Below the pieces are notes generated by a model. That model saw nothing but the letters and a program-made list of their open reading frames with translations. It searched no databases and was not told the origin of the DNA. A stretch of DNA of 64,000 nt from Candidatus Versatilivorator sp. (GTDB taxonomy: Bacteria > Acidobacteriota > Terriglobia > Versatilivoradales > Versatilivoraceae): the NCBI GenBank assembly GCA_965207735.1, contig OZ242296.1:2752001-2816000 (forward strand), written 5' to 3'. Positions 54,632-59,709 of this stretch are shown piece by piece. Within the stretch, counting starts at the first letter, position 1. Every line of letters begins with the position of its first letter. The translations under genes were made by a program, and so were the position numbers.

Positions 54632-54708
54632 GGGCCCATAGCTCAGTTGGTTAGAGCCGCCGGCTCATAACCGGTCGGTCGTAGGTTCGAGTCCTACTGG
54701 GCCCACCA
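54632..54708 (+). tRNA. tRNA with CAT anticodon, probably tRNA-Ile2 (lysidine) rather than Met
   Basis: GGGCCCA/TGGGCCC acceptor stem, TAGCTCAGTTGGTTAGAGC D arm, CTCATAA loop, GTTCGAGTC, encoded CCA; paired 1-72 and position after rpoD as for ileX. Confidence 0.92.
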
Positions 54709-55466: not shown

Positions 55467-55934
55467 TTGAAAAGCCTGATGGCCTACGTCGATGGTGGAT
55501 CGCGTGGGAATCCCGGGAACGCGGGCTACGGGGTTCACATCCTGGATGGAGAGGGCAAGGTTCTGGCGAACCTTTCGGGATGCCTTGGAGTCCGCAGCAA
55601 CAACTACGCCGAGTATGCGGGTCTGATTGCGGCGCTCGACTACGCCCTCGCCAACCGGTTTGAGAAAGTGACCGTTTTTGCAGATTCGGAGCTCATGGTT
55701 CGGCAGATCGGTGGAGTCTACAAGGTCAGGAGTCCCAACCTCATTGGCTCCTTCCGGCAGGCTCGCGCCCTGATCGGCCGCCTCAAGGCATTCTCCATCC
55801 GTCACATCCCTCGCTCCCGGAACCGGGTGGCCGACCGCCTGGCCAACCGGGCCATGGACAGGCAAGCCGGCAGGACGGGCGAGTCGTCGCAGAAGCCGAG
55901 CCGGAAGGCGAAGGCCGATGCGGTGGGGGGGTGA
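55467..55934 (+). CDS. Ribonuclease HI family protein
   Basis: YVDGGSRGNPG, NNYAEY, DSELMVRQ, HIPRSRNRVADRLAN; GAGGAGG upstream of TTG. Confidence 0.92.
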   Translation: MKSLMAYVDGGSRGNPGNAGYGVHILDGEGKVLANLSGCLGVRSNNYAEYAGLIAALDYALANRFEKVTVFADSELMVRQIGGVYKVRSPNLIGSFRQARALIGRLKAFSIRHIPRSRNRVADRLANRAMDRQAGRTGESSQKPSRKAKADAVGG

Positions 55935-56205
55935 GTCGGTACCGGGGAATCCATGTTGATGGTCGCTGCAAATCACGAAGGCGCGGGGGCGGGGGCCCGG
56001 CTTGTCTGAAACAAACGAAAAAAGACTAGAGAAAAAGAGGAATCCACGAAGACACACGAAGGACGACGAAGGGCCACTAAGGCGCTGAGGTTAACCGCGA
56101 CGGGGTACCAAGATCGCGAAGGGATGGTCGATTTCTGATTGTTTCACTCTCGGATGATCCGCCCGGCAGGGCGGGGGCCTCGCTTGCCTGAAACAACCCC
56201 GCAGT

Positions 56206-57600
56206 TCAAGCGGCTGCGATTTGTGGAACTAGGTTGAAACCAAGAGACTTAGCAGCATCTTTGAGGCCCGCGAGGCGGCGTCTCCGGAACCGGTCTTCGT
56301 AGCACGCTTCCCCGATGTCGATGTAGTCCTGGCCGTAGCGCAGCATGCGGTAGACGAGAACGGCCAGCCGGCGGGCCATGGAGAAGACGGCGACGGTCCA
56401 TCCCTTGTGGCGGGCCTTGCGACGGAAGGCGGCCCCCAGAGCGGTCTTGGAGTGCTTCAGAGAGACGGCTGCCATGCGCAGGACGGCGGCGGCGCGAGTA
56501 GACCCGGTGCTGTTGGCCTTCTTGTAGTGGAGCGGCTTGCCTGCGGAGACGGCCGTTTTTGGAGCCAGGCGCAGCCAGGATACAAAGTGCTTCTCCGAGG
56601 GGAAGGCCGTCAGGTCGAGGCCGGCCTCAGTCAGCAGGGTCAGGGCCGCTTCGGTGCCGATGCCGTCGATGCGCGTCAGATCGACCCCGGCAAAGCGCCA
56701 CAGTTCGGTGCGCAGGTGGTGCCCGCCTCGGCGGCTAATCGCCTTTTCCTTGATCGCATTGGGATGCTTCGGCACGGGCTGGTCGCGGCGCTCCACCGGT
56801 TGCAGCGCTTGGATTTCCTCCAGAATGCGGGCCTCATAGGCCGCAATCTCGCGTTGAGTCATGTCGTAGAGCTTCAGCGCCGACTTGAGGTTGAACAGAT
56901 GCTCGTCGCGCCAGTTGCCCGTGAGGTGCTCGGCAAACTCCCGGCTGGACTTCTTGCACCGTCGGTCCCGCAGACCCGCCAGACGGACCGGGTCCCGTTC
57001 GCCGTCGACAATCGCCCGCACGATCGCCATCCCCGTCTGACCGGTCAGATCGGTGACCGCACGATGGATCTGGACGTTCATCTGATCCAGCGCCTTCTGC
57101 ATCCACTGCACAAAGCGGGTACTCTCGGCCCCCAGAGTGCTCAGTTGCCGGTGCAGGGTCCGAACCCGGACGATCGCCTCGTGCGGACGGAAGGATCCCC
57201 GCAGCAAGCCGCAGCTGTGCAGCAACTGGATCCACTGGCAGTCCTGCATGTCGGTCTTGCGGCCCGGAACGTAGCGCAACTGCCGGGCGTTGACCAGCAG
57301 CACCTCGATGCCGCAGGACTCCAGCAGTTCGTAGAGGGGAATCCAATACACGTTGGTGCTCTCCATCGCCACCGACTCCACCCCTTGCTCCAGCAACCAG
57401 TCGGCCAGATGCTGCAACTGCGGCATGGTGGTGCCGAAGGTGCGCACGTTCGGCTTCCCTGGGGTTACCTCCGGAGCGCACACCCAGTGCTCCCGACTCC
57501 CCAGGTCGATCCCTGCCACCTCGGGGTGGATCCGCGACAAGGCCGTCGAACGGCTGCGCTTCTTCTTCGCCTTCGTGTTGACTTTCCTGCTCTTTTGCAT
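56206..57600 (-). CDS. IS110 family DEDD recombinase/transposase
   Basis: GIDLG, MESTNVYW, KTDMQD, IDGIG, SAGK serine motif; GAGGAGG RBS. Confidence 0.96.
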   Translation of the reverse strand: MQKSRKVNTKAKKKRSRSTALSRIHPEVAGIDLGSREHWVCAPEVTPGKPNVRTFGTTMPQLQHLADWLLEQGVESVAMESTNVYWIPLYELLESCGIEVLLVNARQLRYVPGRKTDMQDCQWIQLLHSCGLLRGSFRPHEAIVRVRTLHRQLSTLGAESTRFVQWMQKALDQMNVQIHRAVTDLTGQTGMAIVRAIVDGERDPVRLAGLRDRRCKKSSREFAEHLTGNWRDEHLFNLKSALKLYDMTQREIAAYEARILEEIQALQPVERRDQPVPKHPNAIKEKAISRRGGHHLRTELWRFAGVDLTRIDGIGTEAALTLLTEAGLDLTAFPSEKHFVSWLRLAPKTAVSAGKPLHYKKANSTGSTRAAAVLRMAAVSLKHSKTALGAAFRRKARHKGWTVAVFSMARRLAVLVYRMLRYGQDYIDIGEACYEDRFRRRRLAGLKDAAKSLGFNLVPQIAAA

Positions 57601-57604
57601 GAGA

Positions 57605-57810
57605 TTGGCCTCCTCGAGAGCGAGGGCTCCGGCCCGAGTTGGCGTGGTCGTTCGGATTCTTGCCTTGAGGAGAACTTCCCGGGAAGCCTCACTAATGAAT
57701 GATGACCTGCTCGGACCCAGACTTGCCTTGGGGCACGGGGCACCAATGCTGAAACGGGGCGTAGCTGCCGGAGTCTCGCCAGGTGCTTATTCTTTCACAA
57801 TGAGCCGTTG
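57605..57810 (-). ncRNA. Candidate bridge RNA region of the IS110 element
   Basis: Non-coding end upstream of the recombinase; stem / internal loop / stem at 57610-57672 whose loop strands match the junction sequences. Confidence 0.55.
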
Positions 57811-58202
57811 TTTCACCCTCGAATGATCCGCCCCGTCGTGGGGGGCGGGGGCGGGACTTGCTTGAAACAACCGAAAAATGACAAGAGACAAAAGAAAAAG
57901 ACTTATCCACGAAGGGGCACGAAGAACGACGAAGGGGCACTAAGGCGCTGAGGTTAACCGCGACGGGGTACCAAGTTCGCGAAGGGTTGGTCGATTTCTG
58001 ATTGTTTCACTCTATGTATGATCCGCACGGCAGGGCGGGGGCTCGGCTTGCCTGAAACAAACGACAGACAAAACGACAAAAGAAAAAGACTTATCCACGA
58101 AGGGGCACGAAGAACGACGAAGGGACACTAAGGCGCTGAGGTTAACCGCGACGGGATGCCAAGGTCGCGACGGGATAGTCGATTTCCGATTGTTTCACTC
58201 TC

Positions 58203-58540
58203 CAGCCTTTTGCAATATTCAGCAGCGGGACCTTTGCCGGGAATGGCCACAAAAGGCACAAAAAACACAAAAAAGAGCAGAACACTGAAAGGCTGCAAGG
58301 CGTTGACTCCCGAACATGTCGCACAAGTTCCGCGCTATCTGCCTACATCCGGTCAACGCGACGCCATGGGGATCAACCTCGGATCGTCAAGACTCGAAAT
58401 CAAGAAATTCGTTTTGTGACTTTTGTGCTTTTTGTGGTGAACTCTCATTTTTCACCAGGTCGCACCCGATATTGGAAAAGGCAGAAGATCACGTTTACCG
58501 GCAAAATGACCTGCCCCACTGCCAATATTGCAAAACGCTC
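58203..58540. mobile_element. Non-autonomous MITE with IRs related to the IS in virB11, nested in array unit D
   Basis: Ends CAGCCTTTTGCAATATTC / CAATATTGCAAAACGCTC versus IS IR GAGCCTTTTGCAAAATTC; flanks TCTC/TTTC; removal restores the unit consensus. Confidence 0.7.
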
Positions 58541-58869
58541 TTTCGTATGATGCGCCCGGCAGGGCAGGGTCTGGGCTCGCGGGCAAACGGGAGTTTCCCA
58601 AAGGGCGCCGGTCAGCGTTCAGAGAAGCCGCCCCCCGGATACGCTCCGGCGCACCATCGGGACCCCCCCGGAGCGCATTCTCCCCTAACGGCGTGACACC
58701 AACGTCACAATATTGCAGAAGCATTCGGGCGCCGCTCGTCATTGAAGGAGCTCCATCCGTATTCGTGTGTATTCGTGTTCATTCGTGGTTCGTCTTTAGT
58801 TCCAAAACGAAAACGGCTGGCTGTTTCTCCTCTGAATGATCCGCCCCGTCGCGGGGGGCGGGGGCGGGG

Positions 58870-59709
58870 CTAGCCTGGAGATGATCGAGGTTGCTTTGAG
58901 GGCGCATCGGTCCCGCTCGGCTGGAGGAATTGCAGCGGTTTGGTTTCCAAGATCAGTTTCATTTCCCGAGCCAACCGGTAGAAGTGGCGCAACCCGTCCA
59001 GGTTTTCCTCGTCCAGCGAGTAATCGATGCACCGGGTAAGGTAGGAGTGAATCTGCTCATCGGGCAGCCCGAGTTGGAGAGACTGCTGTTGGACGATGTC
59101 GTCCAGGTGGGCTTGCCCGTAGCGGTAGGATGCCTCGAAGGGGGAACTGTCCTCCATCCCGGTTTCCGCGCGGCAGGCCCAGAAGGCAAACACAAAGGGC
59201 TTACCGGTCTCCTCGCTCCATGCTTCCGACAGATCGCAGCGGTAGAGGCCGCCGGTATCGACGGTCAGGGCGGCGTCGCCTATCAGAAGCGCTGCGTCGC
59301 GGTGGCGCAACATGGAAGCCAGTTCCGGCTCATGGGAGTAAAGGGACGGATTGAGCTGAAACTTCATCCTGAGCAATATGCGGAGGAGGACCACCGAGGT
59401 CCTTGAGGATCGATCCAGGGCGACGCTCCTGATTTGGGGCAGCGGCACTTTGCTGACTAGCAGGACGCTTCGGACCGTTCCCTTGGCTGCCACTGAAAGG
59501 TTGGGGACGATTCTGAGTTCGGGGATGCGTTGGTATTCGATGGCCGGGATCAGGCCGATGTCCACCAATCCGGCTGCTATTTTGTCGGCGCACAGCGCAG
59601 GGGGAGAGAAGTCCAGATCAAAGCGGTCTTTCGGCCGGTTGTGGATAAAGCCCCAGGACAGCGGCAGCGCATTGAGGTAGCCGACGATTGAGAGCTTGAG
59701 TTTCCTCAC
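58870..59709 (-). CDS. mqnA: Chorismate dehydratase (futalosine menaquinone pathway)
   Basis: YLNALPL, GLIPAIEY, VRSVLL, SSRTSVVL, LLIGDAAL, DLSEAW, PFVFAFW. Confidence 0.9.
   Translation of the reverse strand: MRKLKLSIVGYLNALPLSWGFIHNRPKDRFDLDFSPPALCADKIAAGLVDIGLIPAIEYQRIPELRIVPNLSVAAKGTVRSVLLVSKVPLPQIRSVALDRSSRTSVVLLRILLRMKFQLNPSLYSHEPELASMLRHRDAALLIGDAALTVDTGGLYRCDLSEAWSEETGKPFVFAFWACRAETGMEDSSPFEASYRYGQAHLDDIVQQQSLQLGLPDEQIHSYLTRCIDYSLDEENLDGLRHFYRLAREMKLILETKPLQFLQPSGTDAPSKQPRSSPG

Follow-up and report, generated by a model that had tools for sequence, protein, structure and literature searches.

How one recombinase gene comes to stand in a row of mostly gene-less units, all facing the same way and meeting at shared dinucleotides, is the question raised by a locus between rnhA and mqnA of Candidatus Versatilivorator sp. 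(assembly GCA_965207735.1, contig OZ242296.1). We analyzed a window of 64,000 nucleotides (nt) of this contig (forward strand, positions 2,752,001 to 2,816,000; coordinates below are window positions), in which a first-pass annotation had described one IS110 insertion sequence (IS) and four non-autonomous units and had read them as an integron-like array. Our analysis makes it likely that the array belongs to a selfish family of IS110 elements and miniature inverted-repeat transposable elements (MITEs), in which the target guide of a bridge RNA equals the element's own short end, directing insertion to the front of existing units, and the donor is read as a folded strand. With somewhat less assurance, we suggest that a broad clade of ~450-amino-acid (aa) IS110 recombinases, probably including ISPpu9, reads a folded single-strand donor, and that the target guide has here been reprogrammed onto the element's own end, giving a directional cassette stacker.

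As expected for IS110, the element has a predicted non-coding bridge RNA with two loops that covary with DNA. Its consensus fold, built from 61 aligned sequences, has an outer stem plus two internal loops that both carry a hairpin cap, and compensatory changes occur at 24 of its 37 pairs; the sequences derive from 133 records, among which 97 had the region on the strand of the gene, 76 of them distinct. The signal came from this alignment fold, the single sequence folding no better than shuffles (z −0.08). Contigs from RNA runs partly cover related IS copies, the RNA region among them, and give no indication of transcription. We named the left and right target guides (LTG, RTG), the left and right donor guides (LDG, RDG) and the handshake position by analogy with IS621. 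The 3' sides of both loops end in AG, complementary to the CT core, and this core sits on the strand opposite the gene. Comparisons at the DNA level used 92 repeat-anchored loci, of which 68 were distinct and 66 remained after one truncated and one contig-edge locus were dropped. In 56 of 58 relatives (one mis-anchored row dropped), the right donor guide equals the short end of its own element. The target-loop handshake base agrees with the base next to the core in 51 of 66 elements, with wobbles in 10 more.

The left donor guide does not fit the canonical place next to the core, where it has 3 to 6 mismatches of 7 in all 68 elements; it agrees, with 0 or 1 mismatch in 58 of 66, with a displaced site on the strand that also carries the right donor half. 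The displaced site has its start at the base of a stem, and the longest stem has its other arm beginning 8 nt away from the core in 55/66; at none of the other offsets from 4 to 12 do stems of at least 4 pairs occur in more than 5 elements. On the other side of the site lies the sub-terminal repeat (8 base pairs (bp), covarying at its edges, 41 nt from one core), at a distance of 5 nt in 53/66, 4 nt in 9 and 6 nt in 4, and the 5-nt gap equals the distance from the core C to the repeat at the opposite end. Across relatives the hairpin ranges from 12 to 30 nt, and the 8-nt and 5-nt spacings are constant. After removal of duplicates, with the site set by the repeat alone, guide and site agree at 139 of 203 bases (permutation mean 105, maximum 129) and the stem arms pair at 103 of 125 positions (mean 77, maximum 92), in permutation tests that ignore relatedness. 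When the strand is folded, repeat pairs with repeat, and the facing bases of the enclosed bubble pair at only 0 to 2 of 5 positions in 47/47 elements; the base required to make up a second core occurs in 0/66. Among the long ends of this genome, the stem stands at +8 in 202 of 286, and any other offset accounts for at most 16. This comparative evidence is strong and indicates a donor that agrees with its guide only in a form in which one strand is folded back. With both donor-reading arms matching a single strand at sites that flank a hairpin, the prediction is an enzyme that reads DNA in folded form, in contrast to known bridge recombinases. In the structural model, helices additional to those of IS621 could bind the hairpin; the predicted structure confirmed the family and named no separate hairpin-binding domain.

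Several observations weigh against this reading, beginning with the disregard of relatedness in the permutation tests. The 5-nt register is missed by 13 of 66 elements, and folding of the junctions is modest (z −1.3 to −3.0), with A|B and B|C adopting the proposed fold (z −2.3 and −1.9), C|D keeping the repeat pairing around a different inner fold (z −3.0) and D|E lacking the proposed fold. The commonest displaced site in the MITEs of this genome (128/286) has one mismatch to the resident guide. Among distant relatives (37-47% identity), of which 13 of 23 loci could be anchored, most have a displaced site, which the guide fits better than permuted guides do (21 mismatches vs a mean of 34), and the stem is at +8 in 1/13, with several anchors off register. 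The left target guide gave no signal at any offset, strand or flank in 49 elements (largest z 2.8 in 136 tests), so that only half of target choice is accounted for. Neither joined IS ends, as in a circle, nor shuffling of units was seen in public-run contigs, contig-level data being a weak test. CazIS110 prefers double-stranded donors at one junction (10.1101/2025.10.25.684509). Circles were still detected by polymerase chain reaction (PCR) in an ISPpu9 palindrome mutant, which argues that excision does not strictly depend on the stem; whether the palindrome acts in integration was left open by the authors (PMC12288879).

That mutant, together with the scarcity of the stem in distant relatives, would suit an alternative in which the left donor guide reads the displaced site on bent double-stranded DNA opened by the protein and the hairpin only boosts efficiency, as reported for the target stem-loop of ISPpu10, an enhancer whose removal leaves ~44% of the activity (10.64898/2026.03.19.712850). 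Guide sites ~30 nt apart on the same strand would, however, require a U-turn that should be hard for a duplex of that length, and the two spacings stay fixed despite the variable hairpin. We regard this alternative as unlikely and retain the folded strand as the probable donor.

On the target side, end-directed self-targeting through a right target guide equal to the element's own end is well supported by comparison of loci. Where the two right guides differ by at least 2 bases, the flank follows the target guide in 43 of 57 cases and the donor guide in none (0/57). A unit short end follows every IS copy in this genome (10/10), and copies of the same type adjoin a unit end in 16/16 cases among relatives (5 records), as against 0/9 (2 records) for a sibling of 80% identity that shares the donor guide and has a different target guide. 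Only 218 of 1459 guide-matching sites bear the sub-terminal repeat, yet all 10 IS copies occupy such a site; given this choice of a minority, the repeat probably adds target preference. Tandem repeats of 7 bp (CACTGAC type) are the targets of the sibling IS (L018-L026), whose own displaced site is more frequent than any other in the MITEs of this genome even though no copy of that IS was found here. Several distant lineages (L032, L037, L045, L046, L078, L086, L115, L127 and L131) also have copies that appear to be inserted at the end of their own or a sibling element, and end-targeting may have arisen more than once. Other related IS110s lie in what by eye appears to be a tRNA 3' end (L055, L073, L085 and L124), and at L055 a minimal unit of two ends only comes next.

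Stacking could also be a general IS110 property, produced by donor-loop/donor-loop half-matches at the short end, with the identity of the right guides incidental. Right-donor-only insertions and donor-only excision have been reported in IS621 (10.64898/2026.08.31.748434), as has tandem growth beside IS110 with one-sided donor matches (10.64898/2026.08.14.744561), and all internal junctions here are full donor matches. The agreement of flanks with the target guide and not the donor guide, and the siblings that share the donor guide and never adjoin a unit end, make this account improbable as a whole, even if such a half-match reaction may contribute at internal junctions; self-targeting by the target guide remains the explanation that we prefer.

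Put together, these elements suggest the following cycle. The recombinase and bridge RNA would copy out the window + strand of one unit as a circle, whose junction strand would fold back as single-stranded DNA or a cruciform, with the sub-terminal repeats paired and the GC hairpin closing the other side. In the unpaired bubble, the left donor guide would then find GAATGAT and the right donor guide CTTGCCT, spaced as in a normal donor duplex. The target loop would bind through its right guide only, with an extra preference for the TGAAACAA repeat, so that the left end of any unit is targeted; only the CT-bearing strand would be exchanged, and replication would complete the insertion. The new junction would again be a complete fold-back donor, with leftward growth of the array from its founder, and MITEs, which carry both ends, would borrow enzyme and RNA in trans. 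Such a cycle fits the reported single-strand copy-out and circles and top-strand insertion in IS621 and CazIS110 (10.64898/2026.08.31.748434; 10.1101/2025.10.25.684509).

Insertion in front of existing units predicts that arrays grow leftward from a founder, and directional growth was indeed supported, arrays being younger on the left. Units that another unit follows are younger than those without (nearest-neighbour identity 0.937, n = 79, vs 0.896, n = 63; p ~1e-8), and of 33 cases within arrays the left unit is the younger in 22 and the right in 10 (p = 0.03). The first-pass annotation had proposed stacking by one RNA-guided recombinase. That units sharing the IS110 ends are mobilised singly and stacked at CT by recombination was borne out, neighbours rarely being nearest relatives: among the 142 A-type units, 80 have an array mate, and in only 7 of these is the nearest relative a member of their own array, and all 8 A-type pairs of at least 97% identity are split between different arrays. 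Of 95 adjacent unit pairs, 15 have a 94% copy elsewhere; 9 of these include the IS and others consist largely of nested elements, and what remains is two clear cases of a short two-unit block present at two places. The flanks after the last unit agree exactly with one of five guides known from the genus in 34 of 152 cases and with at most one mismatch in 69 of 152, compared with random CT sites at 0.44% and 5.1%, respectively, and it is therefore likely that several IS variants founded arrays.

These results bear on simple tandem duplication, which had been named beforehand as the competing explanation. A version of it in which a repetitive extragenic palindromic (REP)-like repeat multiplied by duplication or slippage, the IS having merely inserted into a host palindrome, could appeal to two complete genomes (G009 and G011) that have junctions and no IS copy found with this query, and to the marginally greater similarity of units in the same array (0.848 vs 0.832). 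The scarcity of nearest relatives among neighbours (7/80), the exact sharing of one CT at 94 of 95 junctions, the array-end flanks, and a hairpin that moves with the IS and is not split by it rule out duplication as the main cause and leave this version next to no probability. Two related candidates were likewise rejected. The GC-rich 40 bp are not a host REP target with the true element end at an inner CTCT, being constant in 10/10 IS copies and absent from unique left flanks, and the locus is not a REP or bacterial interspersed mosaic element (BIME) split by the IS, the hairpin sitting inside the element.

A genome-wide search for the ends, one of the checks suggested for the array, revealed the extent of the family. 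The profile of the long (right) end gave 346 matches in the genome and 0 in the reversed genome; of the 306 matches of at least 20 bits, 233 were paired with a short end and counted as units by a parser that misses degenerate left ends such as that of unit E. The units fall into ~138 loci of 1 to 7 units, 89 of them single, and occupy ~1.7% of the genome, and no abutting units face in opposite directions. About 20 units within arrays are nearly without interior (60-70 bp, both ends only) and define a minimal donor. The genome has 10 IS copies and no further IS110 match with this query; in front of these copies stand 3 full long ends, 1 degenerate long end and 6 stretches of unique DNA. In other genomes of the genus, the junction pattern was found in 12/13 and the IS in 5/13, one genome (G001) having neither, and one relative has a head-to-tail IS-IS dimer with a circle-type junction. 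By sequence comparison, the array represents one locus out of ~138 in a selfish IS110/MITE family and does not form a dedicated cassette locus.

The integron-like reading thus survives in part: stacking by recombination, directional growth and attC-like ends stand, and a dedicated locus and useful cargo do not. In integrons, the attC site is rebuilt by folding one strand of DNA, and the array would work like it, with a site predicted from geometry and covariation to form on one folded strand, a likely one-strand exchange and the newest unit at one side. Integrons, however, use the tyrosine integrase IntI and an attI site and express their cassettes from a platform promoter, whereas here the recombinase is an IS110, RNA does the recognition, there is no attI or host-gene cassette, and a search for sigma-70-type promoters gave no match within the array. 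Among the 47 non-IS units of at least 300 nt, 15 carry a long open reading frame (ORF), in every case that of another mobile element (8 IS1182/IS5-like, 5 group II intron, 1 IS1634 and 1 IS1380, with one example of each type scanned), and the other 32 have no ATG-started ORF longer than 111 aa. Other mobile elements land in the A-type interior (e.g., in units L167 and L166 of genome G000); in 5 units a group II intron with a reverse transcriptase lies at offset 54-57 of it. As a structured RNA this interior was rejected, a consensus fold of 60 of the 142 A-type units showing zero compensatory changes on either strand. A platform that serves the host by storing and shuffling useful cassettes could claim the directional growth, the attC-like ends, the junctions in 12 of 13 same-genus genomes and the two recurring multi-unit blocks. 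The scattering over ~138 loci, the restriction of gene cargo to other mobile elements, the promoter result, the lack of covariation in the interior and the lack of conservation of the rnhA-mqnA locus among relatives make it very unlikely, and the integron-with-cargo reading is overstated.

Table 1. Features of the array, its bridge RNA and its neighbours, in window coordinates
Feature	Position	Strand	Basis or remark
rnhA-like RNase H gene, left neighbour	55482..55934	+	Pfam RVT_3/RNase_H
Right-end remnant-like stretch (~17 nt, last part of unit right end)	55984..56000	+	sequence
Unit A, non-autonomous A-type, CT to CT	56001..56184	+	99.5% identity to copy ~1 Mb away
Unit B, autonomous IS110	56183..57858	+	10 genome copies, 97-100% identical
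IS short end: CT core, 4 nt right-donor half, sub-terminal repeat TGAAACAA	56183..56196	+	
IS110 recombinase, 464 aa, D32/E80/D117/D120 + S352	56206..57600	-	Pfam PF01548 and PF02371; NCBIfam NF033542 above cut-off
Predicted bridge RNA: outer stem, target-binding loop, donor-binding loop	57625..57775	-	61-sequence consensus fold
Right donor guide AGGCAAG	57659..57665	-	fits own short end
Left donor guide ATCATTC	57697..57703	-	covaries with displaced site
Right target guide AGGCAAG, same as right donor guide; fits short end of any unit	57722..57728	-	
Left target guide position	57748..57755	-	no DNA partner found
Sub-terminal repeat TTGTTTCA of long end	57808..57815	+	sequence
Displaced left-donor site GAATGAT, ~30 nt from core	57821..57827	+	exact complement of left donor guide
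GC hairpin, 7-bp stem, 7-nt loop	57828..57848	+	arms covary in relatives
Spacer of 8 nt, then CT core; final two bases of spacer match target-loop handshake position	57849..57858	+	
Unit C, A-type	57857..58048	+	nearest relative 91%, in a different array
Unit D, A-type, right end split by nested MITE	58047..58577	+	sequence
Nested 338-bp MITE of unrelated 1487-bp IS1182/IS5-like element	58203..58540	.	4-bp target duplication, one change
Unit E, rightmost, dispersed-repeat left part and variant right end	58576..58871	+	chimeric
mqnA	58870..59709	-	Pfam VitK2_biosynth; last CT falls within its stop codon

Within the window, the outline drawn by the first-pass annotation proved accurate in most respects (Table 1). 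The five head-to-tail units (182, 1674, 190, 529 and 294 bp for A to E) are joined at CT at all six places described (56001, 56183, 57857, 58047, 58576 and 58870), the common sub-terminal repeats (TGAAACAA/TTGTTTCA) and GC-rich end are present as claimed, and the single recombinase-bearing unit is unit B, with an intact gene. The GC-rich end is part of the element, being identical across the 10 IS copies (two subtypes, one base apart) with differing flanks. A shared ~140-bp interior was correctly described for three units, which are A, C and D, with the refinement that D additionally holds a nested MITE, whose parent element has 43 long copies paired by script; with its right end split, D is likely immobile on its own. 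Unit E, described as having a degenerate repeat and a different interior, is a chimera with a variant right end; its left end is the start of another dispersed repeat with 15 copies, nearly all straight after a right end or remnant. From the sequence comparisons, unit A is a recent arrival, the left end of unit C is the target of the IS insertion, and unit E is likely the oldest of the array.

The recombinase has the DEDD RuvC-like domain and the Tnp domain with catalytic serine of the IS110 family, and insertion takes place at a 2-nt core without a longer target duplication (94/95 junctions and the flanks of 10 copies). The best fold match of its predicted structure is IS621, relative to which it is ~140 aa longer, with extra helices at about residues 175-300 and a C-terminal helix at 431-452. 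Its closest relatives come from records of Terriglobia or Candidatus Versatilivorator.

When the rnhA-mqnA site was checked in relatives, as had been suggested, it was empty, with the gene ends abutting, in 6/13. The closest relative (G002) has one A-type unit there, ending at the identical CT and with a similar right-end remnant at the matching place, and the remaining relatives have other repeats or a partial unit. The convergent junction (window 55880-55935; L154-L160) is a hotspot for unrelated repeats in relatives, and the C-terminal tails of rnhA and mqnA are longer here than in relatives with an empty site. A tRNA gene lies at 54632-54705, between rpoD and a zinc-ribbon gene. The left flank was also considered as the 5' end of rnpB and ruled out, Rfam showing only the tRNA region here and rnpB being intact elsewhere; one A-type unit stands immediately upstream of an RNase P RNA gene (L001:1875-2100).

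If the proposed reading holds, ~1.7% of the host genome is explained as a self-aggregating repeat family that also gathers other mobile elements. A donor that works only when folded would make the single- or double-stranded state of inserting IS110 circles, left open in preprints of 2025-26, directly testable, and the model predicts the mobile strand, a one-strand exchange and an integration role for the unexplained palindrome of ISPpu9. Pipelines that expect the left donor to adjoin the core would misassign this clade and score it as half-matched. For engineering, a folded single-stranded donor, targeting by the right guide only and a target regenerated with each insertion could allow ordered serial stacking.

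The closest known system is ISPpu9 with MITEPpu9 (the ssr9 module) of Pseudomonas putida KT2440, an IS110 with tandem MITEs for which modular circles were obtained by experiment (PMC12288879). In ISPpu9, too, the core is AG when read in transposase orientation and an RNA region precedes the transposase gene; its long end, of 43 bp, contains an inverted repeat and a palindrome, its short end measures 16 bp (PMC12288879), and MITEPpu9 is likewise a gene-less unit with both ends of the co-resident IS110, dispersed and adjoining the IS. By eye, the ISPpu9 long end (Table S2 of that report) reads core, spacer, hairpin, 6 nt plus C, 5 nt and repeat, a likeness of layout alone, with a spacer of 6 nt as opposed to 8 nt here. 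ISPpu9 targets host REPs and has 8 MITE copies, whereas here the element's own end is targeted and 233 units form arrays of up to 7; guide mapping and a folded-donor proposal do not feature in the parts of the report covered.

With IS621 and ISCro4, the element shares RuvC-type DEDD and serine Tnp domains and a CT core (PMC11208160; PDB 8WT6, 9T56), as well as a two-loop bridge RNA upstream of the gene, right guides and a handshake position (PMC11208160). It differs in that the left donor guide of IS621 pairs with the opposite strand beside the core, as against the same strand ~30 nt away here, and in the core strand antisense to the gene, the 8-bp repeats, the longer protein and a left target guide for which no partner was found in 49 elements. 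The expanded IS110 loci (10.64898/2026.08.14.744561) resemble our arrays in their tandem non-coding units (n = 468), repeated local insertion and one-sided matches; those are near-identical duplications (at least 95%) explained by donor half-matches, whereas neighbours here are ~85% alike and are independent arrivals that follow the target guide. In ISPpu10, too, a DNA hairpin near the core matters and the right guide is strict and the left lax (10.64898/2026.03.19.712850), but the hairpin is in the target and the guides are canonical on opposite strands, as opposed to a donor hairpin that displaces the guide site. The IS1111 group shares sub-terminal inverted repeats (7-17 bp; 8 bp here) and differs in having its guide RNA downstream of the gene, whereas it is upstream here, with ~20 nt after the stop codon. 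A displaced left donor site, a folded donor and a target guide for the element's own end were not found in the literature searched, with subscription papers, figures and preprint supplements largely outside its scope. The array itself is a known kind of thing, and the guide logic proposed to underlie it appears to be new.

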